A stretch of 64,000 bases of DNA from Raillietiella orientalis. Taxonomy: Eukaryota. The notes under the pieces were generated by a model that ran no database searches, was not told the origin of the DNA, and worked only from the letters and a program-made list of their open reading frames with translations. The number at the start of each line of letters is the position of its first letter. Within the stretch, counting starts at the first letter, position 1. Shown one piece after another: positions 6,585-43,550 of the stretch. The stretch spans positions 1,550,001 through 1,614,000 of the forward strand of contig JAYWIR010000044.1 in the NCBI GenBank assembly GCA_036172245.1, written 5' to 3'. A program made the position numbers and the translations under genes.

Positions 6585-6640
6585 TGCTGCCTAATCCTCC
6601 ACCCACACCACGCACAAGCACCAACGGAAATGAAACTCAG

Positions 6641-6666
6641 GAGCAACGAAAAGACACGTCCGCTCG
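6641..6666 (-). promoter_or_regulatory. Conserved 5'-terminal motif (candidate internal promoter); representative copy
   Basis: CGGACGTG-TCTTTTCGTT-GCTC. Equivalent motifs occur at seven other element 5' ends. Confidence 0.6.
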
Positions 6667-9600: not shown

Positions 9601-9674
9601 GCAATGGTCCAGCCACTACACGTCTTTGTAAATGTTTGTTTTATAATAAACGCCCCGGAGAAATCCGGGTGAAA

Positions 9675-10052
9675 ATCGAACGCTTTACAGAGAGCGACGG
9701 CGACCGCTAAGGCTCCCTGCGTTCCTTCGTGCCTTGAACCCCGCCGCTTACCTTTGGCAGCGGCGATTTTAGCTGCCTGGCACTACTGCGCCACGCGCTG
9801 CTGCAAATCGAACCATTTTAAAGGAAAGAAGAGATTCGCGTCCATGGACCGCCCCGGAACAGCATACGTCTACTCCGGACTTATCAAGGACTCCGCGATT
9901 CTCCCCAGGCGCGCGACCCATAGCTTGGAGAACAACTTCACGTTTGAATCCACCAATGTGATCGGACGCCAGCAGATCACCGCCTTTCGGCAGTAGACTC
10001 ACCTTTGCTGACCGGAAAGAAACCGGAACATCGCCGGTCTCTTGCATCAGCG
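9675..10052 (-). pseudogene. RT fragment (LMQETGDV...LLPKGG...AVAVALCKAFD)
   Basis: ORF 9769..10047 and adjacent frames. It ends at the AFD codons where the H1 3' end abuts. Confidence 0.85.
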
Positions 10053-11679
10053 ACGGTCGCGTACGCCCGTGCTTTTGCGTCGCTCCGCGGTAGATTGGCT
10101 CTTGTGTGTTTTTGTTCTGCTGGGCTTCTGTGCTGCAATGGGAGCAAAGAAGAACTTCAGCCGTAAGAAGGAAACGCCACCTGCTCCTGAGATGGCTGCT
10201 TCGGCTGCTAGTAAGGAGCCTCTGTCCTCGCAGACGGCGAGGACATTCGCCCAGGTCGCTGCCCTCGCGGCTACGATGGGACCTTCGCCCGACAGCCCTG
10301 AGCTTCAGGCATATGTAGCAAATGGCTACACGCCTGCACTCAGGTATAATTTAAGTGTCCTTTTGCATGAGCGGTTTGGGCGCGAGTTTGGCTAGGAACT
10401 CCAACGGATTGGAGTTCAAAAAGGCCAACTGGAGTCCATCATGCCCATAAGTGGGTGCGGCTACTGGGAGGTGTCCAGTAAGGACGCTCTCCTTACGCAG
10501 CGTTTGCTGCACACGCCGCTGCTCATTCGTGGGCAGGAAATACTCCCTGTCACAACGGACCAGTCGTTCGCTGTCCGGCTCAGTGGAGTGTGTAAGGGCC
10601 TTTCGGACCCCCAGGTCGTGGAGTCCCTTGAAAATTTCGCTACCGTCCACGCGGTTTGGAGGCTGCCAAACCCTGCTGAAGGGTTAGAAGACCACCACAG
10701 CAAGCTCGCGCAAGTGCGAGTGACGATGGCGGATCGCCGTGCAATGCCCACGCGACTGCAGGTGGATGGAATGACCGTCCGCCTGTGGTTTGGCGGGCAA
10801 ACGCATGTATGCTCGGAATGCGGGCAGGAGGGTCACCGCATTACGAAGTGTCCCTCGGCCGCTTGCCGTTACTGCCACGAGCACGGGCACACTAAAGGAA
10901 CGTGCCCGGAGCTCCTTTTAAAAAATGAAAAGCGCAGGAACGAATCGCGTTCCGCATTGCGGAATAATCGCGGCGAATCGAGAGTAAGAAACATCGAAGC
11001 TCCAAAAAGCGTTGCGAAAACCGCGACCACGCACGTGCAGAAAACTGTTTCTCGCCCCCACAAAGAAGGGGTTTAAAAACACAAAAAAACTCGTCGCTGC
11101 AAAGCCTCCGGCTATCCACCCCAAGGAAGCTCGCGAAGAATGCGACTTTTCTACGAGACCTCGCAGCCAATTGTTGAATGCAGGAGACATTGTGCCGAAG
11201 GTCAAAGAGCCTCGTACTGTCGGCATCACGACCGCGAAGCCTCGTACCAAGGCCTCGACTAGCGGCGCGGAATGCGGTCGTTCGCCCGATACGGGAAAAA
11301 CAAGCCTGCGGACAGAGGACACCGCGCCGTCTGAAGCTACTGCGGCCAAGGTGCCCCAGGCACCGAGTGCCACGAAGAAACAGCCGGCAAATCCGCAGTC
11401 CTCGCGCGCGGACGCAGCGCTTACTGTGGCCAAGGAAGAAACTGCTAGGGCGAGCACAACCGCTACAGCAGTGCCCCCAACGGTCGCAAAGGCAACGTGC
11501 GAACCCTCCGATCTGGAAGAGGCAGCGCCTCTCGCGATCGCTAGGTTTCCCCAAGTCCCACAAGGGGTGGGGTAAGTTTATTTTTCTATAAAAATACAAT
11601 ATTTACATTCGCACTCTCATTCACTCAATACAAACATTTTGCACTTGGGGGTCCTTGGGTTGCACTAGAGTTCTGCTTT

Positions 11680-14600
11680 TCAGGAGGGAATTCCAGCTGG
11701 ATGGTCCCGGACGTTGTCCTGGATCCTCTTTAGGATGAATCGGTACGTCCAGGCGTGGATCTTCCCGCAGTTCCTGATGCCGATTTCCCTCTTCAAGAGC
11801 CCTTGTAGGATCTCCATCGGTGGTGCGGCTCTCCTGGCTTTCCTCATTTTCCACCACCACACAAGTATGGCGGTGATGAAGAGGGCGATGGTCGTCCTCA
11901 CCATGAGATTGTAACAGGGAACATTACCATCCCCATGAAACATCCCGGCGAGGATCTCCATAACGGACTTGTTGTAAAGCCCTATGATCCTTTTCAGGAT
12001 CAGCCAGTCATGCAGCAGTGTGGGACACGTCAAGACGTGAAGTCTCGTGTCGTCGTCTCCACATGCTGCGCAGTCTCGATCTTCTTGTCTTCCTGTGAAG
12101 TGCTGCAATCGGGAACCACTCTGGATTCCTCCGTGATAAAAGATCAGGAGGTCATCCTGGGTGCCCGGCGGAAGGTCACTCCTCCAGAGCGTCGTGCCGA
12201 TCGCTAACAGGTTGAACCGTTCATTCCCGTAGCGTTCGGTGGCTTCCTAGAGGGCACTGGTGTCACGGTCGTTTTCTTTGATAAGCCTTCGGAGGTTTGT
12301 TCTGGTTACCCTCGACCATGCGAAGTCGTTGTGGTTGAACCACACTTCGCGGGTCCTGTGGGTAAACCTTCCTAAGATCATCTCTGTATACCGAAGTATA
12401 CGAGTTTGATGTAGGTAACCTCCTCGCCTCCACTCCTGAATTTGCAGTAGGGTAACTCTGGGCAGCTGGTAGATCCAGCTTCTCGTGTCCGGCGGGACAG
12501 GAAGCATCCAAGGGATCACCAGGATGGACTCGTCCTGCCAGAGTTCCCTGCTTCGCGGCACGATGTTGATTTGGTGCTTTCGCACCAGTCGTTGCTTCCT
12601 CCTCCACGTCGGTTCGATTGTTATCCATTTCCCTACTTTGCCTAGCAGCGCAGTCATCAGGCCTTTCGAGTTGTTAAGCAACAACGCGTAGGCCCTGTGC
12701 GCCGCATGCGGCCAGTCATCCCAGTGAGTGGCAATGTCCAGGATGTTTCGCGTATCCATGATTTCCATGGAATGTGCAAGCGACTTCATCCCAGAACAGC
12801 TTTCTTCCCTGGGACGACACAGGGGTTTCAGTCTTACTCTTGGGCGATAGTGGCCCCAGAGTGTTTTTCTTTGAAGCTTGTCGAACTCCATAGTAGTGTC
12901 CTTGTTCATCCTCGCGAATTCCGCCCCGAAGAGCACTTTCGGAAGGAGTACTCCGTTCCATATGTTGGCCTTTCGCTTCATCTTAAGGTCCGTTCGGGTG
13001 TACTTGGCTGCTTTTTTGGCCGTTTTCCCCAGGATTTCCTCTCACAGCAGCATCGACGCAGAGTCGTCGCCGATGTAGACACCCAGGTACTTGTCCGTGT
13101 CCACCGTACGGAATCCACTACCCGTTAGAGTGGAGAGGTTAAGGATTCCGACGGGCAAAAGCTGGCTCTTCTGGGAATTGATTTTTAAGCCCAAGCCCTG
13201 TTCCATCAGGTCCACCACATCCAGAAACGCACGCTGATTTTTTTCTTCCTTGATGAAGAAGAGTAGATTATCGACGTATGCCAGATGGGTAAGACGCTGG
13301 CCATCGATGGTAATCCCGCTCAGTCGTCCGCTCTTCTCGATAAAGGACGACAACGCTTTTATATAGATGACGAACAGCATCGGACTTTGCGAGTCGCCCT
13401 GTCGGACTCCTCGTTCCATCTTGATTGCTGCCGTCTCCTGGCCGTTGATCTTGATCCGGCAGTACGGGTTCTGGAGTACCGCCCTCACGAAGTTGCTGAA
13501 GTGTTCCGGAAGCCCTAGCTTCTCCAGAACCTTCAGCAGCATCCCGTGGTCGATGGAGTCGAAAGCCTTCTCCATGTCAGTGAACACCAGCACCAGGTTC
13601 TCGCCGACGTATCGAGTGAGTCCAACAGTGGCCTGGGCACACTTGACATTGTCCGACATGTGTCGTCCTGGGACTGCACATGTCTGAACCGGAGAGATCA
13701 GCCTCGACATGACCTTGCCTAAGCGGTTGGACCAGATCTTCGCCAACCACTTGGCATCGGAATTTAACATCGAGATTGGCCTCCATTGGGCGATCTGGGT
13801 AGAGTCGCCTCCTTTCGGCAGCACTCTCATCCGTCTCACGTAGAAGGACTGAGATAGTCTGCCTTCTTCCCGGATGCAGAGGGTCAACTGGTGGAAGAAG
13901 CGCAGGTAGGCGTGAAGGTACCGCTAATAGTGCATGATGGGTACACTGTCAGGGCCCGCTGCCACGTCTTTGCGAAGTTGCCCAAACGCAGTCTTCACCT
14001 CTTCTTCGGAGAATTCCTCCTCCAGTCTGTTCCGCTGGAGATCGTCGGTCCTCTTCTCGAGGTAGCTCAGAAAGGCCTGTTGACTGGAGCGACACAGATG
14101 TTGTCGCCTGAAGTGTTTCGTGTAATGCCTGTGAAAGGCATCCACGATGTCCTCAGACGACTGTCGCTTTTGACCGTCGTACTGGATGCAGAAGATATCT
14201 GTTGCCAGATTTCTCTTCTCCAGCACGTCGACTTCCCCTTTGATGTTCTTGAAGACGTACCGACTCTTGTACTGATCGAAGTACTTTAAGAGTGAGCGAT
14301 CTTGGATGTTCTGCTCCAGGTACGCCTCCTGCCTCAAGCGGCTATCCCCGAACTGCATGTTTGCAAACAGGTGTATCCTGTGTTTCAGGCTGTCCCAGTC
14401 GGCGACTCTTCGGATTGTTGTTGCCTTCAGAATCGTCTCCAGGACAGCCTGATGTCCAGGATGGGTTTCTAACCAGGCGAGCATGCTGATGAGCGCCGCC
14501 CTGGTGCCTTGCCTCCGCCGAGGATTCCCCGTTCTTAGGGAAAACTGCACCAGGGGGTGATCGGACAGCGTAGTCATAGTGTCGCGAAACCTCTGGATGC

Positions 14601-15198
14601 GGTTCCCAAGTTCGGTGCTGTGCTGTACGTGATCGATCGGCTTGTGGCTTGCTGTTCGCCAGACCAGTCCGAACTCGTCGGATAGCCGTTGATACGCCGT
14701 CCTTTCTCTGGCGTCTTCGGAGTGAGTGATCTCATCCAATATGTTGAGATCGCCAGCAACAATCACGACGTCCTTGAAAGCAACCTTTTCACGAAGTGCT
14801 GCATGCAGCGCCTCCGCACAACGATGTTTTAGCCTGTGCGGCCCGTACACGTTCACCAGGATGAGGTGAACAGTAGCGGACCAGGCCAGTCGCACACCGA
14901 TGGTTCGTCCGGGTTGGGGACAGAACACTTCCAGAATAGTGGGGGCTAAGTGGTTCTTTATTAGCACCGCTACACCCTTGGTGTTCCGTTCTCCTTCGCT
15001 GACGAACATCTGCCCGTTGAATCGCCATTCCATTCGCTGGCTGATCTCGAGACCCATCCTGTGGGTCTCCTGCAGGCACACGATGTCTTGTTGTGCGATG
15101 GTCCGTACAATCCTTCTTCTTTTTCCCTGGTCGATTACACCGTTTACGTTTTAGGAGGCGATATTCAGCCTCCTGGCGTTCGATAGGGAAGAGGTCAT
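11680..15198 (-). pseudogene. E3 ORF2 (EN-RT-zinc finger), disrupted
   Basis: ATG at 15198 gives MTSSLSNARRLNIAS*NVNG, then LQETH, GDLN, IDH, SDH, WRPISML, KAFD, RQGD, YVDN (instead of YADD), KYLG and CAACGDDDTRLHVLTC. Confidence 0.88.
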
Positions 15199-15199
15199 A

Positions 15200-17069
15200 A
15201 AAGGGGAAGACCTGTTTCTTGGCCTTCCTGAGCTTCTTCTGTCTGGGAGAGCCTGCTCTTCCAGACGTCGAAGAAGCAGCGGGCTTCTTGCTGCCGGCGT
15301 TACTCTCCGTACCTGTGAGGTCGGTAATTTCCGCCTCCTCCGTAGAGTGTTTCGCCCGCGCGATCAATTTTCGAGATAGCGCCTCTATCGCTACCTTCGC
15401 GCAGAAGTTCGCCTTCACGTCGAGAAGCTGTTCCTCCAGTTTCTCGCGCTTGGTAACTTCCACCGCCTAGTTCACCGTCTCCTAAGCGTCTCCGATCTGC
15501 TGCAGGATTTGCTTCTGCTGGGGCCTCTTTGCACCTCCATCACTTCTTTCGCAGTTCTGCCAGCTCCTCGATGGACTGCAGGGCCTCCTGCAACAGCGGA
15601 GTGGCTTCTTTTTCCACTTTTGCTTCTTCCTATGCTGTCTCCACTTTCTCACCTTCCGCTGCTCTTTCTGGATTAAGAGAGGCTTCCTGCTCTTCGATGA
15701 GCATCTTACTCTCTCCCTTTTTACCGACTTCGATGAATGCGTCCGCCAATATCGGCACCGCTTCCTTAGTCTTTTTCGGCCTTCCTGCCAACTTTTGAGG
15801 TTCTTCCGCCTCTTTTATGTTCCTCTCTCTCACGGGAGAGTGTCCTCTTATCCTTCTGCAATTGGCGAATTCAGGTGAGCTCCATTTAGCGTGCCCATGC
15901 GTCTTGCAGAAGGAACAAACCTCCAGCTGCGGGCAGTTCCGGACTTGGTGTCCTATCTTGCCGCAGCGGTTGCATCGAGATGTTGGGCAAGCGCCGGCCC
16001 TGTGGCCAAACTGCTTGCATCCGGTGCAAAATATCGGCTCTTGCCGGTAACGCACATTCACACAATGCGATGGCCCGTCAATTACTGCTATCGCAGGGAT
16101 CGCCACACCTTCCTTTAATTTTATTTTGGCGATCATGTCGCCAGAAAAGATTTTTACTGAGAAGTTCTCGAATTCGAGGTAGAGAACTTTCCCAAACTGC
16201 TCCAAGTATTTCCACACCGTTAGTTGTGGAGTGTAGATGGATATGCCATGTAAAAAGACGGTCGTGTATGGCATCTCGTTAACGCCACAAACCAGCCTTC
16301 CTTGAGTAATGATCCCCTTCTGGATCAATTTTCCCCTAATGTATTCACAGTCCGTGAAGACTGTGAACCCGTTGTTGCTCGGAATGATCGCCTGATTACG
16401 ATTAAAATCTATGTCTGTCATGTCCAGAGACAGATATACCTCCCGGATATTGTTGAAACTGATCAATCCAGTCTTAAAAATAATGGGCTTTAGCGCTGTC
16501 CCTAACTGGACGATAGGCCGATATACCTTTTCGACTTTCCCCCTTAGGAGCTTGCCGAATTTCCTTGGTGGATGAACACTGACCTGCTCCGCCGCCACCG
16601 ACGCGTACGAAAACGGCTGCACCGACGCAACCGAGCAAGATGGTTACGCATCTTAAGCTACCTGCACCGCGTGGAAGCCCGCGGGTCCCGCCTGGGGCGC
16701 CGCCGCGGGTGCAACCCTCGACGTTGCCGCCGTCGCCACCGCAGGCGCGACCTTTGCCGCCGCGGGCGCGATCCTCGGCGTCAACGCCGCGGGCACGACC
16801 TCCACCGTGGACGCAGCGGGCGCGAATCTTGGAATCGCCGCCGCAACCTCGTTGCTGTCATACGTTACCTCCATCTGCAAGGGGGACGTCGGCTTCTCCC
16901 CTCCTGCTGGTACCTGCATCCTGGCGGCTGGTTCTGCCGCTAAGGAAGTTTGCAGGTCTTCCGCCGTGATCTTTTCGGCGCTTTCTTTGTAGTTGTATGA
17001 GCAGATCCTACGCAGCACACTCTTGTCCACACTCACTTTCTTCTGGACACTTTCCCTCTCCGGCCACAC
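15200..17069 (-). pseudogene. E3 ORF1 with three zinc knuckles and an Ala-rich N-terminal repeat
   Basis: 15630..16622 has CTGCKQFGHRAGAC, CNRCGKIGHQVRNC and CSFCKTHGHAKWSS. APAAA-type repeats lie in 16653..17069. Internal stops are present. Confidence 0.82.
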
Positions 17070-17806
17070 ACGATCACAATCAACTAATTAACCGTCGTAG
17101 TGCGCGCAATACAATGAACCTCGAAGCCAGGTCACTGACTCGGCATAGAAAGAGCAATCCTTTGACTGCCACGAAGGTGACTCCGATGCCTCCTTTGTAA
17201 GACGTGGCGAAAGCGACGCCCCTAGAGGAGGTAGCGAAAACTCCGGAGGTTTCCGAGACGAAAGTCGCGAAAGCGTCCGGAAACCGTGAAGGCTCATGGA
17301 AAATTGTAAAGAGAAAAAAAGAAAAATCTTCCAAGAAGGCTTCGCAACCTCCATCCGTTAGCTCTTTGAAGGCAAAGAACAGCCGCGTGAACTACAAAAA
17401 CCCGCGCGGAAGGTTCGTTTGCCCTGGAAAACGCCAGCGCCGTCAACGCGTGCAAGTCCGCCTCTGTGACCGCCGAGAAGACGATTCCGGTGCAAACGGA
17501 CGGATGCAAGCGCACGTAGAACGTGCGAGCATCAGACTCCACAAAGGAGTCCAAGAGCACCGCTAAACGACGCCTTACTCGCGCGGGAGCGAGCGCCCGC
17601 AGGGCTGAAGCCCTGAGGCGTGACACACTCGCCGCGGAACGGCAAGTTCTCACCCCGGAACCCACAGGTTCTGCACCCGGGAAGGAGCACTCGATTACGC
17701 GCAGCAATATGGAGGCTGGTGGCGATTGTGCCCTCCAGCCCGTCCTGCTGCTTACTGTCCGCTCGCCGGGTGAGGCGAGAACCACAGCCTCGCTTTCCCA
17801 GCCGTG

Positions 17807-20800
17807 ATGAGGGCGATCGCCTCTTTTCGTCGTGTTGCCGTTGCGCTCTGGAACGTCGACGGTCTCCAGCACTACGAGAAAAGGCGAATTGTGACTTACG
17901 CTCTGCGCGCCTTTGACTTGACGCTCCTTCAGGAGATTCACAGCATCTTCGAAGAGCAGGCTGCCGAAATCGAACATCGCGCAGGCGGAAGGCAACATTA
18001 TAGGTGCGTTGTCGCACGTACGTGCGGCGTGGCTTTCCTCGTACGAGGAACGTTTGCGGGAGCGTTGTGCGGCGTTCGCTTCGACACGGAAGGCCGAGTG
18101 GGACAGCTTGTACTCAAGTGGTCCGACTGGATCGGCCTTGTCGTAACGAACGTGTAGTCGCCGAGCGGTGCTGGACGATGTGCCGAAAGGATTAAGTTCT
18201 TCGGTACCGTTCAGAGCCAGTGGCTCACTCGTTCTCACCTTACTGTGGCGCATCTCATCGTGGGGGACTTTAACGTCCACCTGCTGACCGAGGATAGCGT
18301 ACACAAAAGGGAAAAGTTGCTAGCGGAAGAGATGTGCGAGTCCGTGCACGCGTGCAACTTGTACGCTAGCGACCCTGTTATGGCAGCAACGCCGAACCAC
18401 GTATACCTTGATGAACAGTTGCTCTCTCGAGTGGATCGAAGAGGTCCCGTGACGTCCGTGCTTTCAGACTACAACAAGCTCGAGTTCGAGTTGCTTCCGC
18501 CAGGCAAGGGGCCTCCAAACTGTTTTTGGAGGATGCAGGCAGACTGGCTAAGCCACCCGGAGGCGGCTGAGCATCTTCGCCAGTACCTCCTCGACTTCGC
18601 CATAAGTCAGCACGCCGACTTGGACGATCTGAAAAGATCGGTCCGTGAGTTTTGCTGCCGGTTTCCCTTCTACCAGCTTTCGCGCGCCTGCGGAGAGGGT
18701 GTAGCCAACTGCTGAGACCTTCTGTAGGCCTGCTCCCACTCCAGGCGCGCAAACGTTGGTCGATTATCCGTGTACAAGGCCAAGGCTGAGCGCCAGGTCT
18801 GGCAGTCAGGGGCGACAGTTTTGCTCGACGACCAGAACCGGGAATGCTCGGCTCCAGCCAACTTGCGACGAATAGTCAGACGCTATTACTATTCCCTGTA
18901 TGCGAAGGCACCGACGGAACGCATTCTCTTTAAGCTGCTTGTGCCGATTCATGCACCTGTTGTAGACGAAGAGGAAAGCGCTCGTCTCCATGAGCCCTTC
19001 GCGGCAGAGGAAATTTATTCGGCCATCTCGAGACTCAAGAGACCGTAAGCGCCAGGCGAGGATGGACTCCCCGCGGAATTCTTCCAGTGATTTGCGGAGG
19101 AGCTCATCCCCCTGATGCTTCAACTCTAGTCGCTGATGCGAGACGCGGGCAATGTCCCCGCCTCGTTTCGCTCAGCGAAGGAGCGTCTCCTGCCGGGAAT
19201 TGGAGATTTGCGCCACTGAACAATTAACGTTTGATCACATTAGTGAATTCCGACGTCCAGTTGTTCTCGAAACTTTAAGTGGCGCGGATGGGGAGGATCG
19301 CTCATTCTTTGGTAAGTTCGAAGCAGACTAACGCTGTTCCTAGGCGGTCCATGGACGCGAACCTCTTGTTCATCCGCACATGGCTGCAATTGCAGCATCG
19401 TTTGGCAATGGATAGTCGTGCGAAAGCGACTCCTTCGATTTCTCATCGACGGAAGCGCAGATAGCAATGTGAATCCTTAAGAGTCTTGGCGGTTGCAGTC
19501 GAATTGCACAAAGCTTTCGATTGCGTGAACCAAAAGCTTCTTCTTGTGCTTTTGGAACATCTGTATCTCCCGGCATCCCTGTTGACGTACTTGCGCTCCT
19601 GCTTGTGATGCTTGATTCCATCTATTGTTTTCAGTGGCTATCGCGTGTATGGCGTGCCAATTAGGCGAGGAATTAGGCAGGGCGATAGCTTAAGCCCGCT
19701 GCTGTTTAGCATCTATTTAGAAATGGTGCTGGAGGTTTACAGGCTGACGCTAGATAACCTGCCGAGCTCCTGTCCAGGTACGCCGGCCGTGGCAGCCTAT
19801 GCCGACGACCTGCTTCTCCTGTTGCCCATGTCCACCCCGGTGGCGTCGCTCGAAGATTTCTTTGAGTTGATCCGTCGCGGTGCAGGCGTGAGCGTCAACA
19901 GGAGCAAGAGCATGGTTGTTCCGGTTGGAGCGACGTGGGAGGGGCAGTCCTACTGGATCCGCCAGGGGATCCCAGCGAGCAGGTACCTAAGGTACCTTGG
20001 CGTGCCGTTGGGCGACTTCTGCGTCTCAGAAGCGTGGTCGGACTGCCTTCGGAAGGCAGAGCGTGCACTTGTCGCGTTCTCAGGAGGCGAGTTCGTCTTC
20101 CCGGAACGGGCCAGCATCTGGAACACCTTTGTTGCCCCCCTCCTTCGCCCCCTGTATTTTGTCTGTTCACCCCCCAGGAAGTCAAAGTCTGGGCGCAGCG
20201 CCTTCTACGCAAAGCGTTGTGGGGAGCTGCAAGAACCCGTGTTAGACTTAAAGACTTGGTGGCGCCGCGTCAGGATGCAGGCTTGGGCATCCTGGACTTA
20301 AAAAGCATCGAGTTGCAGGTGCAGTTTCGAATGCTGCGGCTCTGTGCTAAGCTGTGGTGTACGCCGTGGTGCTTACTTGCACGACTTATACTAAGGCGCT
20401 GCACGGGAAGCGAGGGACTGCTTTCGTTGCTGCTCCACTTTCGGCACACCAGAATAGGGTTTGGCTTCCCGCTGAGCCAGCTGTCCTCACTGCTGGAAGC
20501 CCAATGTTGGATCTCCGGCCGCCCTATGAACATTAATGCATGGCGGCAGGAATCTTTTTTATCGTAAGCAGCTTCCGAAGGAACGCGCCCGGAAGAACTT
20601 CGGCGCCTGCGGCTTCTCCTCAGTCATCCAATATACGGAGTCATGCAGGAGAAGAAGATGTCGGATCGTCTGGCCGCAACACCGTTCGTCGCAGCGCTGT
20701 CTGCCCTCAGGGCAAGCAACGACAGTTGCCTAACGGCGAAATGGGACTTCTCCTGCTGAATAGCGGGAGTCAGTAAGCTCCTCGGCTTCTGGACGACCAA

Positions 20801-21377
20801 GGAGCTGGTGGAAACAGCGACTCCTCGTAATCGGCGAAGGGCCTGCTTCGGTCGAGTGAACATTTAAGTGTAGGCCCCGATGAGACTGTGGTTTACTCCG
20901 TTTGTTTGAACAGCTCCGTGTTTCCCTGAAAGTGGAAACAAGATGTGTTCCTCTTTTTCACTGTAGCGATCACTGTAATCGGCTGCAAAGCATCGTTTAG
21001 GGGAAGCTGCTCTGCCAAACTGTTTGAGGTGTGGAGAGATTGAGTCTCTTCCGCACCTCTTGCTGGAGTGTTGTGACCTCCGTGAACTGTGGCAAAGTCT
21101 GATTTCAGCGATCCTGCCGCAGGGAGGCACTGTCATTGATGTGCGGCGGCGCTTCTTCAGGAGGAATGGATGCTTGGTAGGCGCGATTGTCGCAACCATG
21201 TGTTGCATTCGCGCCATCGTGAAGGTGCGCTACGCCCTGGAGTTGTCAGCGCAGCGAAGGGAGGTTCACCGGTTTGCGGCAGAATCTATGGAAAAGGCTG
21301 CTAGGTGGCCTCCTCTTTGTGTCGAGGTCAAAGAGGACATCGCCGGCATCCATCGCTGGTTTACAGACTTTGATTAA
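17807..21377 (+). pseudogene. E2 ORF2 (EN-RT-zinc finger), multiple stops and frameshifts
   Basis: WNVDGL, LQEIH, GDFN, RQGDSLSP, YADD, RYLG and CGEIESLPHLLLEC are spread over ORFs 17804, 18245, 18770, 19612, 19935 and 21024. Confidence 0.88.
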
Positions 21378-21720
21378 CGGCTTAATCCGGTGATCACTAC
21401 TTCCTGAAGCCCACCTGAACCTCGTTCCCGCTCGCTCTGCTAAAATTCCGGTGCCATTACTATTATCCCGGAGAGAACCAGAGCGATCCCAAAGACCCTT
21501 GTCACGGCGTCCCCCATTGATTTCTTTTTCTTTTTTTTTTGTTTGTTTGTGTTTCCTTTTCCCCCACACCGTTCTGTGTTATTCTGGCCTGCGTGTCATA
21601 AATATTTTCTTGATTCTCGTTCAGTCGTCGGTTGGGAGCCTGATTCCTAGCTGGTTTATATTAAACTATTGTTTTTGTTTATATTATATGGAATAAACGC
21701 CCCGGCGTGACCGGGTGAGA

Positions 21721-23957
21721 AATCTCCTGGGCGTTCTTCGCAGTGATCACTTGGATCTCCTGCAGTAGGTCAGCTTGAAGTCACTCAGGATGGCGGCCGA
21801 GTCGCGTCTGTTTCCGTGGTCGCGCAGCCCGTTCACGTTCCAACAGGCCACGCCGACAGTCGAGCCAAGGTGTTGTTCCTGGGAAAGTGACAGTGTGGCG
21901 CCGGCCACCTGTTTGGTTGGGATGGATGGAGGAACGGGGGCACCGTGTACTGGTTCTCTTTCCTCCATGGGAGCCGATACCTCGGCACATCGCAACGGTG
22001 GAAGGGGGCGGGTTTCACACACCTGCTCCCCCTCTTCCATGGCTGCCGATTGGTCGGCTGGATCGGTCGACGGGGGGGCTGGTCATCATCAACCCTCTCC
22101 CCTAAAACTGTTGCTGTTATCATTTCCGCAGGGTCCATCGGTGGGAGGGGACGGCAATCACCTTATCGCCCTCCTCCATGGGGATGCTCAGCAGCTCGGT
22201 AGCGGGGGGGGAAAATCCCTTCCTCCGTTCACACGCTGCTGGCTTCCCCCTCAGCTGCCGGTGCGTCTCCATCCTTCTTTGTCGGGATGCGCCTCTTCGG
22301 ATTCTTGGACTTCCGTCCAGTCTTCTTCGGAGGCGCCTCCGCGGAGGAGGACGCACTTCCGGCATCCGGTTCATGGTCACCTGTCGGAGTTGCCTTGCTC
22401 GCGGCTGGCCTCCGCCATGCCTTTTGCGCGCCGTTCTCACAGTCCGCGAGTTCGGCCGCGAGCTCTTCCGCCGCCTTTTGGAAGGTGGCGTTCTTTATTG
22501 CTGCGAGCGCGTCGCTCGGCTCCCACTCTGTTTGCACACAGGGTTCGCCTTTCGTGTTCGCGGCTTCGGTGGCAACGAGGCTGGGGATATCTCCCCCGTC
22601 GGCGGTCTCGGGGACCTCCAAGCGCTCCAAAGCGATCGAACATTCGCGGAGCAAAGCGCGGCGCTGCCTCCTATTTAAAGTAGTTGTCGCGAATTCCGCT
22701 GTCGGTCCGTCGGTTTTTCGGCTTTTCTTACTCTTCGGCTTCGCTGTCCCCCAGCCCTCGTGGTCACTTGCGTCGTCGAAAGTTTGGTCGATCGCCGTTT
22801 GCTGGAAGCATTCGGACTCTGGCTTTTTGCTTGGCCATTTATTTCCTTCTGTTAGATGCATGTTTTCTCCAAGCGTTTCCTCTTACCTTTTTTCAAGGCA
22901 GAGGGCGCTGGAGGTTCCCGCATTGGGCACACTTTCCAGAGGTGGCCCTTCTCCCCGCATTGGAAGCACTGGATGTGAAGGCACCGTTTCTTTAGGTTCC
23001 CAGTCGCATCACAGTTTCCACAGTACTTGGGCTTGCCCACGTACCATACGTCGACCGTCTCGTTGTCGTCTTCTAATTTGTGGGGTGGCCCACCGTTTTC
23101 GTGTACGGTCACTCGCGCTGCAGCCTTGCCACTGAACAGTCCTCCATATGTTTGGAAGACGTTCGGCTTGGTCCACAGCGCGTGAACCGTACCATATTTC
23201 GTCAGCTTTTCCTTCACACCAGCTTTGCTCATACGGAGAGTTACACCGCTGAGATGCGCTACAACCGAGCGATCCTCTGTTACAGGAAAGACCTTTCAGC
23301 CTTTTACTGTGAAGGAGGTGTTCAGGAGGCGCTGAGCCAGGCTTGCATCTTTGCAAGTCAGCTCCACCTGCTGACCCCACTCATCACGGAAAGTCCTTCC
23401 AGGTCTTTCTCTTTCATATTCAACCGCTGTAACTCTCTCTCAAAGCCACAAGGGGTGTTCCTCACAAATACATTGCCTACCTTATGGATCAAGGATGGCT
23501 TATATCCTTGATTCCGGTAGGCACGTTGTTCTGCCATGGCTTCAGGGGATGGCGCTGCTGCCACGGCGCTCCACGTCTCGTTGATGGAGAAGACGCATTT
23601 ACGGGCGCGATTGCCCCCTTTTTCAAGGAGGGGGTTGCGCCTTTTTCCAGGGTGGCGTTTATCCCCTTTTTCAAGGATGCACATGCACCCTTTTCCAAGG
23701 GAGAGGTAGCCCTCGTTTCCGACGGAGCGGTTACCCCCTTTTTCAAGGAAGCGGTTGCCCTCGCCTTCGTGGGCGCGGTTGCGCCAGCCTCCGTTGGTTG
23801 GGGAGAGGAACAAGCCTCTCCCCCTCCGATCTCCATCGCGGTGTCCTCAGGCTTTTCTGCCACTGGACACCACCGCAGATGCTCCACACACAAACACTAA
23901 CAAAGAAAAACGTTTCACAACAAGCGCAGAAGAGCGCTGAAAAAGCACGAACGCGCG
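21721..23957 (-). mobile_element. 5' part of a LINE (E4): 5' motif, disrupted ORF1 and start of endonuclease
   Basis: 5' motif at 23932-23957. Zinc knuckles in 22852..23232, then CWNVNGL..LQ. It is cut where the E2 3' end abuts. Confidence 0.85.
23613..23763 (-). repeat. Degenerate ~24-bp coding tandem repeat in the E4 ORF1 N-terminus
   Basis: CCC(C)TTTTTCAAGGA-like units recur about every 24 bp and translate as A-x-x-SL(K/E)KG, about 6 units. Confidence 0.75.
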
Positions 23958-24226
23958 ACAAGTTCCTAGCAGTTCTATGGGCTTCGCGACTGGGGCAGGT
24001 AGCCGAATCCGTAATTTCTTCCGAGCGTACTTATGCTGCTTCAAGGCGAAGTATGGATACCAACCTATTTTTCACAAGCACGTGGGTGCACCTACAGAGA
24101 AAAGAGAAGTAAGGAAAAGAAAAAATCGGCAACCTTACATTGGGGCCGCCAGCGGTGCAGACAGGGACACCCGGGCGGAGAAGGCGGCCCTGGCGCTCGA
24201 AGTCGATCTCCATAAGGCGTTCGATT
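23958..24226 (+). pseudogene. RT fragment (KFLAVLWASRLG...DLHKAFD)
   Basis: ORFs 23798..24112 and 23977..24519. It ends at AFD, adjacent to the E5 3' end. Confidence 0.85.
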
Positions 24227-27200
24227 TTTACCCGGATTTGGCCGGGGCGGTTATTATGAAAAACACATTTACAAAGACGTGCAGCGGCTGGACCACTGCT
24301 CCAGCCATGCACGAAGAAACACAGAGTCTTCCTGGTCACAGGTTCACAAACCGGTACGCTCCACCACGACAGCAGGGGGAAGGGGCAAAAAAACAAAACA
24401 AAACAAAAAAGAAAAGAAAAGTTGGGAGGGTACGGGAAGGGATCACTGTAGCTGGTGAGGCCGTTGCATCCTTTGCAGGATGCCGGCAAGCTCTTCCTCC
24501 ATGCCTGGATCCAGGTTAGCCATCGCGACGCCCTCCACAGCAACTGGGAAGCTTCCTGGATAGCACTCTGGTCGCGTTGTCCTCCCGTAGCCTTGCTCCA
24601 GGTGTCAACCATCCCGCAAAGGCATCACAGGGCTGCTAACGAGGCCTCTGGCTGAAGAGCTCGGCAACTAAGAGGGCTTTCAGAACGTCCCTGGGGTTGC
24701 AGCAGGGGAATCCGATGGCCGCGAAAAAGCGGAACCCAAGGAACCGACGGGCAACACAATCCACAAGCAGGTGGGAGAGGGACTCCCGTTCCCCACACTT
24801 AACAGAATAGGGGTCCACAGCTCCCCAGGTCCAGTGGTGTCAGCGGACATTGCAGGGGAGTCCCCAGTGCTGCAACAGGAGAGCCGACTCCTGCCATTTT
24901 AAGGGGAGGATGAAGGTGTTCATTAGTACCGAGGGTCACTTCAAACGTTCAATGGGAACGTCGAGCAGCGCGCCCCAGCGTAGACATGGGAAGGCGTACT
25001 CGGGGACGCAGCGTCTGTTAACTGGCCCGTCTTCCACTATACTATCTTCTTCTCCTTTCCGGAGATTGTAACCCTAACCTCCCACTTCGCCGCAACATCG
25101 CTGTCCAGATTTTCCTTCAGGAAGGGCAGCGCAGCAGCGAGGGGGGTTTTTCCTGCTTACGCTCTCATCTTTGGATCCTTCAGGATCTCACGGAGCGTGC
25201 AACTTCTCTAACCCGCAAACAGGAACCTTCGTTTCTGTTGGGAGCGTTGTATGCCAAACTATCTCCACGTTCGAACGGTTTCCTGCAACAAGGCGCTACA
25301 GTTCAAAGGGTACAGGTGACCAAACCTTGTTTTTTTGCTGTCAGCGCAGCCACTCTTTGTAGCTGCAGTCCGCATCGGTTGACGCGGCAACAGAGTGCAA
25401 GAAACGACGTAAGTTCCGTCTTTCCGGTGGCTACCTGGAGAAGGAGACGTGCAGGGACGCACCAACAGGTGCACCACAACTCTGGAACAAGTGCCGACAT
25501 TTGAAACTGGAGCTAAAGCTCCAGCCGCTTAGCGTCAGAAGGCCCAGACCACCGTCTCGACGAGGAGCGCGCAAGTCCTTTAAACAAACTTGGGCCCTCC
25601 CGTTGCCCCAAAGGACGATACGGAGGTGGTCCTTTGTTCGCTTTTTAATCCTCTTTGTGGAAGGGCAAACAAAAAGCAGAAGGAAGAGGAGATGAGCCGC
25701 GAACGTGTTCCAAACCGCGGCTTGTTCAGACAGGAAAAACCTGCCGCCTAGGAAAGGGCCGATCGCCGTTTCTACTTTTTGGAGGCAGCCGGACCACGTT
25801 TCCCCAGGGCAGTAATCTCTCAACGGCACACCAAGCTACTTGAAGTACCTCACCGTGGGGATCCCCAAACGGACCCAGTCCTGCTGCCCTGCCCACGCCG
25901 CACCAACTGGCATCACGGACGACTCCGCCCTGTTCACGGTAAGTCCGGTTCTTCGATGCAGCAGGTCGAAGAACTCCTCGACCGCCGAAGCCGGGGTGGA
26001 CAAAGGGAGCAGCAGAAGAAGGTCGTTCGCGTACGCTGAAACGATTGGCGTACCGGCACAATTTTGCGGAAGGTGCGCCATAGTTCCCCTGTACGCTCTC
26101 AGTACCAACTCAAAGTAGGTACTAAAGAGCAAGGGGCTCAGGCTGCCTTCCTGCCAGATCCCACGCCGCACCGGCACGCCGTGCACGATCTGCCTTCTGA
26201 AAGAAACGTCGATGAGCGCGTCGCGCCCGCTGGAGCGCAGATAAGCCACTAATGAGGCCTAGAAGCCCAAACGTTCCAGAATCTCCAGCAGGAGATTCTG
26301 GTCGACACTATCGAATCCTTTGCACAAGTCGACAGCGACCGCAAGGGCTTCCTCTTCCACCCGACCATCCCACCATTTGCTAGCGCACGCACCGGAATTC
26401 CGGCTGCGCACCAAGCTCCTTTCTTGTTGGAGCTCTAGCCAGGTGGAAGCGTGGAACAGGTTCGCCTCCATGTTTTGACCGGGAACAGCATATGTCTGTT
26501 CCGGGCTGATGACGATGTTGGCAACCCGTCCCAGACGCTCTGATCGAACCTTCGCTAGAAACTTGGCGTCCCCATTCACTGTTGTGATATGACGCCAGTG
26601 GTTCATGCTCCTCAGATCTCCTTTTTTAGGGAGCAGTCGCACCTTTGCTGAACCAAACGAGGCGGGAACGTCACCTGTCTTGCTTATCAGCAAGGTGAGT
26701 TGCTGTACCAGAGGGGTAAGCTCAGCCGCGAAAGTTTCATCAAACTTTGCGAGCTGGCCGTCCTCCCATGAAGCCTTGCTCCTCTTGAGCTTTCCGATGA
26801 CCGAGAGGATGTTGTCCTTCGTGAAAGGCTCGTCGAGGGTCTATTTCTCCTCCTTCCCGATCGCTGGAGCGCGTTATGGAAGCAAGAGTCGTGATATGTT
26901 TCTCTCCGGAGGTGCCCTGTCATACAGGGGAGAGTAGTATCTCCGCAGCAGGCCGCGGATTTGGGCTGGTGCCGAGTGCTTCTAGCCCTGATCGTCCAGC
27001 AATCAGGCCGATCCGGACTGCCAGGCTTGCCTCTCAGCTCCCGCTTTGTATTCCGCCAGCCTGCGAATTTCGAGGGTCCTAAAGTAAAGAAGGGCCTGCA
27101 GATAGGCTCGTTCGTTACGGACCCCGGTATCACAACCCGTAGGTAGTCTGTGCAGAGGGAACTGGTCGCAGAACTCTTGGACCAACCGCTTGGAGCGGTC

Positions 27201-27820
27201 TCAGTCCTGAAGCTCCGTATGAACGTGCGCAGATATTCCGTTGCGTCCGACAGCTTCAGCCAGTCCCCTGGGAGACGAAACGCGGACAAGAAGGGAACCC
27301 TGACGCGCGGATGGATCTCGAGAACTATCGGGCGATGGTCGGACAGCTCGTACGGTTACTTGCCGCGTCTGCCCACACGAAGGCACAGCTGCTCGTCAAG
27401 AAACACGTGGTCGATGCTGTCTTCGATTCCCGGTGCACTGACCAACAAATTACAGGTGTGCACCGCCATGCACACCCTTTTCACCAGATCACGCTCGTGA
27501 TTCTGCTCATCTGTTTTCAGGCGAACGTTGAAGACTCCTGCAACCTGATTTGCATTCCGCACGCCTGCTTCGGTCAGCCAGTCGCGCCGGAAGGCAAGGA
27601 AAAACTCTTTCCTCATCCTTTTGTTCGTGAGGTAGGCACCGCGCGGTGCGTACACGTTCGTGACGATCAGATCGATCGAGTCGGACCACCTGAGAGTCAG
27701 CTGATCGACCCGACCGTCGTCATCAATTCGCACGCCCTTCACGGCAGCTTCGATTTCTGACATCACGAAAAACGCGACGCCACAGGTGTAGCCGGCGCCG
27801 CATCGCCAATACAGGATACT
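24227..27820 (-). mobile_element. 5'-truncated degenerate LINE (E5), from endonuclease to 3' end
   Basis: EN in 27356..27910 (NVYAP, IDH); RT in 26259..26693 and 25836..26249 (YAND); zinc finger in 24636..24818; terminal hairpin at 24231-24255. Confidence 0.88.
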
Positions 27821-28299
27821 TCCTTTCGCTCCGTCTTTGGTGCTTCTTTGCGGCTGCTCCTTTTGGGTGTGGTGCGATCTTTCATTTGAAAATGAAGCCA
27901 GTGCCCGCACAGATGGAGGTGGACGAATACCTTTGCGTCGGAGGACCTTCTCCGGGAAGAGTGGAAGCCTCCACCGATCGTCCCTCGCCTCCAGCGAGAA
28001 GTTTTGCCGCCGTTGCTAAGGCAGAGGAGGGCCACAGGGCCGCACCCTACGAGGCAGAGCTACGGGCGTACGCCGCTAGCGGCTACAACTTCCCTCTGGC
28101 CTCCAAGGTCAGTGCCGCGTACCGGGATGTGACTGGCAACCAGCTCTAGAGCGAGCTGGAACGCGTAGGAATCCGAGAGAACGATCTGCAGGCACTTATG
28201 CCAGTGAGCGCGTAGGGCCATTGGAAGGTGGGCTGCAAGGATGCAGCCCTCGTCCAGCGCCTTCTGCAAAAGCCCCTGAAAATCATGAGAAAGCAGGTC

Positions 28300-31200
28300 G
28301 GATGGTGCTCTTGCGCTCAAGGAGGAGGATCGTTTTAGGTTGGCGGAACCGTGCACGATGGTGGAGATCATCTCCGCCATCGCGAAGTTAAAGAAAATGA
28401 AGGCACCAGGAAAGGACGGCCTGCCCACGGAGTTTTAACATCGCTTCGCGCCAGAGCTGGCCCCCCTGGTGCTTAGGTTAAGTACGCTGATCCGCGAACA
28501 CAACGAAGTTTCCGCCTCGTTCCGATCAGCAATAGTACGTCTCCTGTTGAAATCAGGAGACTTACGCAACATTGGCAACTGGCGTCCCATCACAGTAGTG
28601 AATGCGGACGCAAAGTTGTATGCCAAGTTGTGAGCAGAGCGTTTGGGGCGGGTGGCCGCTTCCGTGGTGAGTCCCGAGCAGACTTTCTCTGTTCCCGGAC
28701 AAACCATGGAGGCCAACCTGCTCCTCGCCAGCTCATGGTGGCAGTTGCGACGACGCGTTGCTCAGGATGGTCGAGGGAGCCTCCCGCTCCCCTCTGACTA
28801 AGATCATGCAGAGGATAGGACGGACTCGACGAAAGCCTTTGCCGTCGCAGTTGATCTGGACAGAGCATTTGATTTTCACCCGGATTTCTCCGGGTCGTTT
28901 ATTAAAAAATAAACTTTATAAAGAAATTATTAATGGCTGTGACAATGCTCCAGCCAGAAGCGAAGAACCACGGAGCCTGCCAATTCACCGGTTTCTAGAC
29001 CGGTACGGTCCACCAAGGCAGCAGGGGAAAGGGGAAAAACAAAAACTAAACAAAAAGAAACAAAGGGTGGGAGGGAACGGGAAGGGATCACTGATGCTGC
29101 TGGGGCCGCATCATCCCTCTCAGGATGCTGGCAAGCTCTTGTTTGTTGTGAACATCCAGGTGGGGCCATCGCGACGCCCTTCTCAGGAATTGGAAGGCGC
29201 ACTGGATGGCGTCCGGATCGCTAGGTCCTCCCGTCGCCGTGCTTCATGCGGCGACGATGCCACGAAGGCAGCACAAGGCTTCTATCGAAAACGCTGGCCG
29301 GAGGGCGTCCGCAACGAAGAAGGCTTTTAGTGCGTCCCTTGGGTTGCCACAAAGGATAACGATGGCCGCGGCAAAGCGGAACCAAAGGGGCCGAAGGGCA
29401 ACACAATCCACTTGGAGGTGGGGGAGGGACTCCCGTTCCCCGCACCTTACACAATTGGGATCCACCGCTCCCCAGGTGTAGTGGTGTCGACGGGCGTTAC
29501 AGGGGAGTCTTCAGTGCTGCAACAGGAATGCCGACTCTTGCCATTTTAGGGAAAGGATGGAAGCGTTTATAGGAACCGGAGGCCACTTCAGATGTTCAAT
29601 CGGAACATCCAGCAGCGCTCTTCAGCGCAGAAGTCCATTAGGAGGCGTACTCGGGGTCGCAGCATCAGTTAGCATGCCCGTCTTACACTCTCTCTGCTTC
29701 CTTTCCATCCCGGAGATTTTTATTGTAACCTCCCACTTCTCCGCAACATTGCTGTCCTTATGTTCCACTAGGGAGTCCAGCGCAGCAGCGAGGGGGGTTC
29801 TTCCTGACCACGCTCTCTTCTTAGGATCCTCCAGGATCTCACGGAGCGTGCAACTTCTGTAAACCCCAAACAGGAACCTCCGTTACTGTTGAAATCGTTG
29901 CATGCCGAACTGTCCCCACGTTCGTACGGTTTCCTGCAACAAGGCGCTACAGTTCAAAGGGCTACAGGTGACCAAACCTTGTTTGTTTGCTGTCAGCGCA
30001 GCCACTCTTCGTAGCTGCAGTCCGCATCGGTTGACGCGGCAACGGAGTGCAAGAAACGACGTAAGTTTCGTCTTTTCGGTGGCTAGCTGGAGAAGGAGAC
30101 GTGCAGGGACGCACCAACAGGTGCACCACAACTAAGCCACAAGTGCCAAAATCCGGAACTGGAGCTGCAGCTCCAGCCGCTCCAATGTCAGGAGGCCGAG
30201 ACCACCGTCCCGACGCGGAGCGCACAAGTCCTTTAAGCGGACTAGGGCCCTCTTGTTACCCCAAAGATCGATACGGAGGAGGTCCTTCGTCCGTTTTTTG
30301 ATCCTCTCTGTGGGGGGGCCGGCATGAGGAGCACCGAGGAAACACGGCATCAGGCAGGGTGAAAGCCTGAGCCCCTTGCTCTTGAGCATCTACTTCGAGA
30401 TGGTGCTGAGGGCATATAGGGTAACTCTGACAAGTCTGCCGAGCTCGTGTACCGGCACACCTGCCGTGTCGGCCTATGCAGACGATCTTCTGCTGCTGCT
30501 TCTTGGGTCCACCCCGGCGTGTGCGTTCGAGGAATTCTTCTAGTTGCAGCGCCGCGGGACGGGCCTGGGGGTCAACAGGGCGAAGTCGTCGATGGCTTGT
30601 GTTGGTTCGGCGTGGACTGGACGGTCGGACTGGATCCGCTTGGGGATCCCAACGGGCAGGTGCTTCAAGTACCTTGGCGTTCCGTTGGGGAACTTCTGCG
30701 CAGCAGAAGCCTGGTCCGACCGTCTCCAAAAGGCAGTGTTGACGATCGGTCCGTTCCAAGGAAGCAAGTTCTACTTGCAGGAACGGGCCGCGGTGTGTAA
30801 CGCGTTTACGGCCCCCCTCCTTCGCCATCTACTGTTTGTGTGCCCTGCTTCTTGTTTTGTCCGTAAAAGAGTAGCGGGCCTCCTAAGGACAGTCCTTTAT
30901 GGCAAAGGGAGGTCCCGTGTAAGGCTCAAAGACTTGTGCGTTCCACGTAAATACGGTGGACTTCGCGTGCTTACGCTGGAGCTCATGGAAGTGCAACTAC
31001 AGTTTAGGACTCTCGCCTCGCGGCAGAACTGTGGGACACTCCCTGGTGGATCCCAGCACGCCTCCTGGCCCAACGAGCCTGCGGATCCGGCGGACTCCTG
31101 TAGTTTCTGTCTGCGCGCCACGGCAGAAGGGCACATTGTGGCTCTATGTTGCGGCGCATCGTCGTTGCGGTTTGGGAGAACGCCTGGAGCTCCTGCCTCC

Positions 31201-32295
31201 CAGGGAACCGGTCTGCTTGGTTGCAGGAGTCAGTGTCCACCTGGGAATAGATCCACGTTCCGGCGGGCACAAGGAACACTTGCCTGAAAACGCACGCCCG
31301 CTGGACGCTGCAGGACATCGTGCAGTCCCACGACAAGCTTCTGTGGGCCTTGATAACCCCCTCGCCCCAGTGCTGCCCTTGCTTGTGAATGCCAGGGACA
31401 GTAGAAAGCAGGGGAAATGGACCGTGTCCTGCACCATAGGCGGCAGGACACAATCGATAAAGGCGTGGACATCTCGGCAGCTACCTGACGCTGCGACGCC
31501 GAGTGTCCCGCTTAATGGAATTCTACGCTGGGGTGAGCTACTCGGACTATCTCCGGAGGAGATGGAGTGGCCCCCGCGTCCTGGAACAGTGCATTTCTTC
31601 CCCTGAAATGACATGATGTGGCGTTGCTTGTGGTACTCTGGGGATTACCATTTAAAGCACGCCTGCACCACACCACCTGGAGGCCTGTGGATCCTAATTG
31701 TGATCGGTGTGGGGAAAAAGAAGCATTCCCCCACCTTCTCCTTGAGTGCAGCACCCTCCTCCCTTTGCAGGATCGTCTCGCGGCGATCCTGGACTTGCGC
31801 GGATGCGGCCCAAAGGACGTTTTAAGGCGCCTCTTCTGTAGTGACGCCTTGTCCTTGACCGCTAGTGTAGCAGTCCTCTGCTGCATCAGAGGAATAGTGG
31901 CGGCTTGGAACGCCACCGAAAGAAGGCGTCAGCCAACCGGCAACGCATTACACTGGACTCGCCTTTTCGCGCGCATTGTCTGCAAGTGGCGCCACTTAGG
32001 CGCTGAAAGGACTCAGCTTGTCCGGATCCTGAATAGGATCTAGAGGACCTGCCGGAGCGCAACGTGATCCCTTCTCTGCTCTCCTACCCTTAAAACATTT
32101 GCTCCCCCCCACATTTGAACTTTTTGTTTCTTTTTGTTTTCCTTTATTTGCCATCCTCGCGCATCGGAAATACCTCTCCGGCATGGAGCCGGGAACCAGC
32201 AAGCTGTTTTGGAGTGGTGAACCTTCGGGTTCGCCACGCGACATTTCATGTATTTTTATTTCAATGAAAGAAATGCCCCGGAACATCCGGGTGTG
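28300..32295 (+). mobile_element. 5'-truncated LINE (E7) of a distinct subfamily, interrupted by E8
   Basis: 28300-28873 encodes KAPGKDG..WRPIT..DLDRAFD. From 30327 it encodes GIRQGESLSP, YADD, KYLG and the zinc finger in 31618..32043. Hairpin CCCGGAACATCCGGG at 32277-32291. Joining the two halves is inferred. Confidence 0.72.
28874..30322 (-). mobile_element. 5'-truncated LINE (E8)
   Basis: ORF2 C-terminal third, including CVRCGERESLPHLQVDC. Terminal hairpin at 28877-28903. Confidence 0.87.
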
Positions 32296-43201: not shown

Positions 43202-43550
43202 CACCGGATTAGCCTGCACAAATATGTCTTCGGCTGCCGAGTGGGCCCAACTCCCACAGGGCGTAAGGAGAGAGATCGCCGGCATCCATCGCCGGTTTTG
43301 AAAGGAAGGAACGGACTCACCAAAGACCCCTATCCCCTGCCCTCCTTATTTTTCTTTTATTTTTTTTATAGTATTGTATTTGTGGTCCCCTCCCTCTCGT
43401 TCCGGACTTTCGGCATACCGACCTGCGTTTCGGGGATCCCACCCCCTTCGTCTCTTGTTTTCCCCTTTGTCCAGGAACCCTGTTCCCGGATAGTTTACAA
43501 TAAACGCCCCGGCGCACCCGGTTGATAAACAGCCGACCTTCTCCATTGTT

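Follow-up and report, generated by a model that had tools for sequence, protein, structure and literature searches.

An L1-like LINE lineage whose copies lie antisense at reverse transcriptase motif A of three relatives in a LINE nest of Raillietiella orientalis

In a stretch of 64,000 nucleotides from Raillietiella orientalis (contig JAYWIR010000044.1, positions 1,550,001 to 1,614,000)—which we call the window and which sets the scope of all of the results given here—three related copies of a long interspersed nuclear element (LINE) lie antisense at the same codons of three different relatives, those that encode A-F-D in motif A of the reverse transcriptase (RT). We think it likely that the lineage to which these three copies belong, called E in what follows, targets RT motif A of its own relatives in a lineage- and sequence-specific manner. 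That the endonuclease (EN) of the element is what chooses the site is a separate claim, and we hold it with less confidence than we hold the targeting itself.

The family in question is an L1-like LINE of the apurinic/apyrimidinic endonuclease (APE) type, with an endonuclease and an RT in its second open reading frame (ORF2). In the reference copy, REF, whose ORF2 of 1123 amino acids supplies the residue numbers used throughout, Pfam finds Exo_endo_phos at residues 53-260 (8.5e-12) and RVT_1 at residues 501-769 (1.8e-22), and the top match among solved structures is human LINE-1 ORF2p (2.3e-45). The ORF1 translation upstream has two CCHC-like spacings and matches no Pfam family at E <= 1.

The three junctions can be read directly from the DNA. 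The 3' end of E1, on the plus strand, reads ...CCGGGTGAAA / ...AATAAACGCCCCGGAGAAATCCGGGTGAAA at 9674 and is followed at once by ATCGAACGC, which is the antisense of GCG TTC GAT (A-F-D), at 9675-9683. E2 and E3, both on the minus strand, adjoin GCG TTC GAT at 24217-24225 and GCA TTT GAT at 28865-28873, respectively, each again encoding A-F-D. A scan of motif A codons gives the host peptides at these junctions as VALCKAFD (host H1), VDLHKAFD (H2) and VDLDRAFD (H3), the very peptides that an initial annotation of this DNA had reported, and the junction coordinates of that annotation are correct to within 1 nt. Its central observation, that related elements make three antisense junctions at AFD, also stands up: the pattern CCGGGTRAAAATCRAAYGC occurs three times in the window and not once in 100 dinucleotide shuffles. 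In uninterrupted copies, a T commonly follows the GAT, so that the exact position of the nick is uncertain by 1-3 nt.

Is this one event seen three times, or are these three events? The inserts are clearly kin. E1, E2 and E3 are 80-81% identical to one another over 1.5-3 kb; the 3' untranslated regions (UTRs) of the other two are 84.5% and 75.3% identical to that of E1 (~375 nt); a tree of the last 1400 nt places all three in one clade with support of 100/100; and they share the hallmark of the lineage, 3' hairpin loops that end in AAAT. The hosts are another matter. Over the 255 nt that lead up to the junction, H1, H2 and H3 are pairwise only 50-54% identical, and a host tree of 13 copies makes H2 the sister (99/99) of an uninterrupted copy, E_R, its nearest relative at 78-79% identity, and puts H1 with P', K and G (99/97). 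Forcing the three hosts into a clade costs 88.6 log-likelihood units and is rejected by the approximately unbiased (AU) test with p = 1.95e-78. Because the hosts are so much less alike (50-54%) than the inserts (about 80%) and because the host clade is rejected, a single duplicated or transduced event is excluded, and the three insertions are independent. The difference among hosts had been offered earlier as an argument against one duplicated event, and phylogeny had been named as the way to look for descent from one insertion; the trees just described, which unite the inserts and separate the hosts, bear the argument out.

The site also goes with the lineage. Altogether, 13 element 3' ends were located in the window, and all three of the E-type ends lie at AFD, whereas none of the other 10 does; by our own arithmetic, 3 chosen out of 13 ends is 1 in 286.

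A second precise site, in the linker between EN and RT, is used by other elements. REF (1149..6666, minus strand) is a full-length element of a sister lineage that lies antisense at LQ|DWD (residue 307/308) of the upstream part of E1, between the two copies of a perfect 17-bp target-site duplication (1132-1148 and 6667-6683). F2 (34474..40013, minus strand), likewise full-length and antisense, lies in another host, K, 2 nt from the linker site that REF occupies, with a 4-bp target-site duplication, GCTC (34470-34473 and 40014-40017). The two junctions, CTCCA|GGACTGGGAC for REF and AAGCTC|TTGGACTGGGAC for F2, are thus 2 nt apart, and host sequence continues on both sides of each element. The 3' tails differ, GGGTTTCAA in REF vs GGGTGAGAAAC in F2, and the 3' modules are 70% identical. 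REF and F2 thus behave as the E lineage does, lying antisense at a fixed coding site of their own family. Being full length, with an open ORF2 of 1123 amino acids and a perfect 17-bp duplication, REF is probably young; its ORF1 is broken by one in-frame TAA, at which the frame of F2 is uninterrupted.

What, then, is the rule by which a target is recognized? The initial annotation had proposed sequence-specific targeting of the most conserved RT codons. Among 1615 sliding DNA windows over nine aligned copies, the AFD 12-mer ranks 555th, with a mean conservation of 0.815 vs 0.944 for the top windows, and the sister lineage uses a linker site that is not catalytic. For these two reasons, what is targeted looks to be a set position within the ORF2 of the family rather than a catalytic motif. 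The proposal therefore survives in part: within the window, insertion is independent, antisense, nucleotide-precise and confined to one lineage, as sequence-specific targeting would have it, but the idea that the most conserved codons are sought finds no support.

As for mechanism, we suppose that the insertion machinery of E would nick a relative's ORF2, on its sense strand, directly after GCN TTY GAT(T) and that the freed 3' end would then prime reverse transcription of the E RNA. This RNA would finish with the conserved double hairpin and, after it, a short A-rich tail, and the resulting copy would lie antisense inside the relative's RT gene. The sense strand of the host, ...GCNTTYGAT(T), does pass without a break into sequence complementary to the 3' end of E, and a continuous junction strand of this kind is the product expected of target-primed reverse transcription from a nick there. 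Signs of target-primed reverse transcription are present in the window more generally: E2, E3, H1, H2 and H3el (the element to which H3 belongs) are 5'-truncated, and target-site duplications are of variable length (17 bp in REF, 4 bp in F2 and 8-9 bp in P'). The site itself would be determined by the endonuclease module of the element, and sister lineages would have other specificities, such as that of REF and F2 for LQ|DWD. Repeated targeting of the element's own family could, in the end, have produced the LINE-only nest that the window now is.

The case for the endonuclease comes from comparing modules. At the DNA level, the EN of REF is 77% identical to that of F2, and the EN of E2 is 67% identical to that of REF and 65% identical to that of F2. 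In the linker, E2 is closer to REF (79%) than F2 is (73%), and in the RT, the same holds (84% vs 78%). A tree of the EN pairs REF with F2 (100/99), and a tree of the 3' region places F2 with the E clade (98/97). Since the two trees disagree on the placement of F2, it would seem that modules have been shuffled and that the site follows the endonuclease module, which we regard as suggestive.

Several observations weigh against these readings, and we gather them here. On either tree, a single change of site suffices, and the endonuclease of the E lineage is represented by one decayed copy, E2. The evidence for targeting amounts to three events in one 64-kb window, in which 11 motif A sites are intact and unoccupied and 3 are occupied. 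A target-site duplication is available for none of the E copies, and E3 has a deletion of ~120 bp instead. Beyond the 5' ends of E1 and E2, the host sequence does not pick up again, so both need a later rearrangement or a deletion linked to insertion; the 3' flank of K, checked for the missing 5' part of E2, does not encode it.

Could RNA, rather than protein, choose the site? Read-through transcripts of an antisense E copy would carry a 3' extension, AUCGAACGC..., that could pair with motif A of any relative on its sense strand and so position priming there, as has been suggested for R1/R2-type elements that are co-transcribed. All of the E copies sit in a flank able to supply an extension that pairs with motif A, the AAUAAA conserved within the hairpin is not clearly a terminator, and the tree argument for control by the endonuclease is, as we have just conceded, not decisive; moreover, co-transcription is said, in the passages of PMC4494074 that bear on it, to strengthen target-specific integration of R2. 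We nevertheless consider this explanation unlikely. The EN of the E lineage is disproportionately diverged, at 67% identity to REF compared with 84% in the RT, while REF and F2, with their common site, are still 77% identical there; these two share that site despite their different 3' tails and their 3' modules of 70% identity; and the DNA would have to be nicked there whether or not the RNA pairs. It might be thought instead that the choice is one of chromatin, LINE-rich and perhaps centromeric, into which elements go without further selection, with AFD as a structural hot spot for any element that arrives. In a window that is all LINE, an insertion has nowhere to go but into a LINE, and Zepp-type L1 clusters have been described, in the part of PMC8226300 that treats them, as nests that target existing copies. 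This kind of regional targeting strikes us as quite improbable when AFD is used by the E lineage and by none of the other 10 ends, when the orientation and the position are the same to the nucleotide in all three E insertions and when a second lineage, that of REF and F2, has a precise site of its own.

Two further explanations would take away the independence or the reality of the junctions. One ancestral insertion might have spread by segmental duplication, 3' transduction or gene conversion, and two features of the window do invite the thought: BLAST alignments among the E copies run on for 29-40 nt beyond the junction, and the window holds a segmental duplication, with 1-1148 and 59973-61119 being 93% identical. 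The run-on, however, is the conserved coding stretch ALAVAVDLxKAFD, in which every host has the codons of its own lineage right up to the GAT, and each host is closer to a different uninterrupted copy, which, with the identities and the AU test given above, leaves us with very little belief in a common origin. The junctions might, finally, be chimeric joins made during assembly of a region that is built of repeats 70-95% similar to one another; they gained no read-level support from the one sequencing run that we found, X1 (below), which consists only of contigs of a relative. Misjoins, however, arise at common sequence, of which the E 3' UTR and the antisense of motif A have none, and the same join would have had to be made three times in three versions of the sequence. 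We give an artefact of this sort next to no credence, and we return to specific targeting by the E lineage as the reading to be carried forward.

The anatomy of the three insertions and their hosts deserves a fuller description. E1 (7335..9674, plus strand) belongs to a chimeric element, of which it is the E-type 3' portion; it runs from about ORF2 residue 525 to the end and includes the 3' UTR and both terminal hairpins. The sequence of the element upstream of ~7335 is 87-95% like a composite of P' and E_R at 59973-61770; if the 3' part of a second copy, P, is taken together with the upstream part of E1, the identity to this composite is 87-97% (1-1148 vs 59973-61119; 6684-7335 vs 61120-61770). 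At ~7335, or ORF2 residue ~525, the identity falls to 60-75%, and this drop leads us to regard E1 as the product of recombination or template switching. The host fragment at its 3' end, H1 (9675..10050, minus strand), covers RT residues 481-607 and ends in motif A. A model in which E1 arose by inversion is ruled out, since H1 is not E_R-like.

H2 (23960..24225, plus strand) is an RT fragment that covers residues 523-607; it begins at residue 523 of E_R-like sequence, the same as the breakpoint of E1, which may be a coincidence. E2 (24226..27823, minus strand) is E-type and 5'-truncated at ORF2 residue 98, and it is decayed, with one stop codon and with GVFN in place of GDFN. Its truncated 5' end adjoins the 5' end of K. 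This is one of two head-to-head joins, at 10050/10051 and 27823, in which the truncated 5' ends of minus-strand H1 and E2 adjoin plus-strand 5' ends, the partners (M at 10051 for H1; K at 27823 for E2) looking full-length. At the join between K and E2, the 3' flank of K holds no continuation of E2. A small segment called U (43198-43548), considered as the tail of H2's element, showed only the similarity of its terminal hairpin to that of REF.

E3 (28874..30319, minus strand; E-type and 5'-truncated at about residue 823) is the simplest of the three. H3, the left part of H3el (28300..28873, plus strand), covers ORF2 residues ~400-607, and the right part (30328..32293, plus strand) resumes at about residue 648-651 and reaches a 3' end of its own at 32293. 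E3 is thus clearly a clean nested insertion within H3el, between host residues 607 and ~648, with the ~120 bp of H3el already mentioned lost at the 5' junction. The whole block, 28300-32293, in turn splits the ORF1 of K: collinear pieces of that ORF1 lie on both sides and match 43563-44039 (88%) and 44199-44727 (86%). Relative to a related copy, O, the insertion of H3el into K cost the host ~160 bp (28300, 32293-32295 vs 44039-44199). With ~160 bp lost at H3el and ~120 bp at E3, target deletions seem to be common in the nest.

The nest itself is made of LINEs from end to end. Fragments of ORF2 or ORF1 are found by tblastn across the entire 64 kb on both strands, and 72% of the bases of the window have a paralogous DNA match. 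Five insertions—REF, F2, P', H3el and E3—are nested, with host on both sides. K (27823..43197, plus strand) is a near full-length host that carries H3el, with E3 inside it, in ORF1 and F2 in ORF2. P' (54872..60777, plus strand) is a full-length element that interrupts E_R at its GDFN motif (residue 195), in the sense orientation and with an imperfect duplication of 8-9 bp. P (1-803) is a copy, at 93-95%, of the 3' part of P' and is a duplicate, not an independent event.

A profile of the 3' UTR, together with inspection, found 12 3' ends (at 802, 1149, 9674, 21718, 24226, 28874, 32293, 34474, 43197, 46734, 49497 and 60771) in addition to that of U. All 13 finish with a pair of hairpins (GUUUAUU...AAUAAAC and CCCGG-loop-CCGGG) and then a short tail rich in A. 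A poly(A) tail is typical of L1 proper; it is absent at all 12 of the ends that we displayed, which have the GC hairpin plus 2-5 A instead. The AAUAAA makes up the 3' side of the first stem and may be structural, instead of or besides being a polyadenylation signal. Only identical or G-U pairs maintain the stems; fold z-scores for six copies range from -3.2 to 0.04, and the terminal hairpins have no covariation support. U, 350 bp long, is pure 3' UTR, complete with a terminal hairpin; on one side of it K reaches its 3' end, and on the other O starts with its 5' end. Two other copies, A and B (46734-52427, minus strand), are 5'-truncated and lie head to tail, with an identity of 82.7% across 2.76 kb; past the hairpin tail, their 3' ends share 9 extra bases (ACTTCCSTG), after which the flanks diverge. 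At 10348-17700 on the minus strand is a member of a distant LINE family (ORF2 28% and ORF1 25% identical to those of REF), which has no paralogue in the window and which has the highest summed contig depth (~60-95) in the public run X1.

Searches beyond the window added nothing on the junctions. A search of sequencing runs returned one, X1, with a word share of 0.09. At 80% likeness, 529 of its contig pieces aligned, of which 15 are at least 99% alike and 330 less than 90%; among the pieces listed, none lies at any of the three junctions. X1 is a relative or a mixed sample and holds no junction evidence. A scan of metagenomes with the E-type 3' hairpin pattern, stripped of its flanks, gave 16 loci, none of which matches the 3' UTR profile or ORF2, and we therefore take all 16 to be chance matches. 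In viral contigs, the 3' hairpin pattern of the family has no match. In contigs of prokaryote genomes, ORF2 finds one locus, with 31% identity over the endonuclease, which is no close relative. For a query at the protein level, we used the open reading frame that runs out of H2, across the junction and on through the E2 UTR in reverse complement: the word-index search gave no match among 20 candidates, and the full-library search gave one, in which the junction part (query residues 29-76) is unmatched. The sole close protein is P0001, with 69% identity to REF over 616 residues by direct comparison (74% in the search listing); it is an uninterrupted RT fragment without a junction. Named protein matches to ORF2 are plant or animal L1-like proteins at no more than 28% identity, and there is no named Zepp protein among the 35 ORF2 matches.

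How far might this be generalized? One can imagine a guild of sister L1-like lineages, each with a precise specificity, set by its endonuclease, for a different coding site in ORF2: RT motif A for E, LQ|DWD for REF and F2 and possibly GDFN for P'. Such a family would propagate almost only within itself, would disable its older relatives and would build centromere-like LINE islands of the Zepp type. We offer this larger picture tentatively, as one that we find possible but would not yet bet on. As for what a lineage might gain, the destruction of a competitor's RT, put forward in the initial annotation, is an evolutionary reading that the window does not support, and the idea of a safe haven, as proposed for Zepp nesting, would fit what we see equally well.

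How would such an element stand among LINEs already described? LINEs with sequence specificity pick harmless multicopy targets: ribosomal DNA, small nuclear RNA (snRNA) genes, microsatellites and some transposons. R2 has a restriction-like endonuclease and a target in a host gene, unlike the elements described here, with their APE-type endonuclease and their target in the open reading frame of another retrotransposon. What these elements would have in common with R1 and R2 is a nucleotide-precise site in a conserved multicopy sequence and, judging from passages of PMC4494074, a possible role for read-through RNA that pairs with the target.

The Tx1 group is a closer parallel. According to the passages of PMC4494074 that deal with it, many Tx1-clade elements have a target preference, attributed mainly to the endonuclease: Tx1L inserts into the piggyBac element Tx1D, Keno into U2 snRNA genes, Kibi and Koshi into microsatellites, Tx1-Mar into Mariner-N4_AMi and Tx1-8_Crp and Tx1-4_AMi into long terminal repeat (LTR) retrotransposons, and the targets of the group also include Harbinger transposons, RNA genes and satellites. 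The list of Tx1 targets drawn up in the initial annotation, which has DNA transposons, omits the LTR retrotransposons; no LINE is among the Tx1-group targets that the passages name. Like the Tx1 group, the elements of the window would be APE LINEs that use one defined sequence of a multicopy target, possibly a transposon, with lineages differing in target. Unlike that group, they go antisense into the coding sequence of their own family, at RT motif A or, in the sister lineage, the EN-RT linker. The likeness rests on target behaviour within the window (all three of the E-type ends at AFD), not on RT phylogeny. In the literature as far as it was covered, which excludes the original Zepp papers, we found no nucleotide-level target inside the coding sequence of another LINE.

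Zepp and ZeppL, by the partial accounts we have drawn on (PMC3446292; PMC8226300; bioRxiv 10.1101/2022.06.16.496473), are green-algal L1 LINEs that form nested clusters at putative centromeres; these accounts name no target for them at the level of nucleotides. A single cluster per chromosome, at the centromere, is a mark of the type. The window resembles them in being a LINE-only nest of L1-type elements formed by insertion into existing copies. It differs in the tails, since Zepp and L1-1_CR are tabulated with (A)n in the portion of PMC3747384 concerned, whereas the elements of the window end in a hairpin plus 2-5 A, and it differs in arrangement: Zepp, as those accounts have it, makes tandem arrays of 3' ends, whereas here fixed internal coding sites are used, mostly antisense.

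Why should any of this matter? If it is true, the use of a coding motif of one's own relatives as a fixed target would supply a molecular rule for the origin of LINE-only nests, among them the Zepp-type clusters proposed as algal centromeres, and competition of transposon against transposon would become testable at a defined site. It would also provide natural APE endonucleases that have new and differing specificities in closely related proteins, which would help the study of how the endonucleases of APE-type LINEs read DNA. On our best reading, the novelty lies in a relation to two known systems at once—to target specificity of the Tx1 type and to nesting of the Zepp type—with a coding site of the element's own family as the target.

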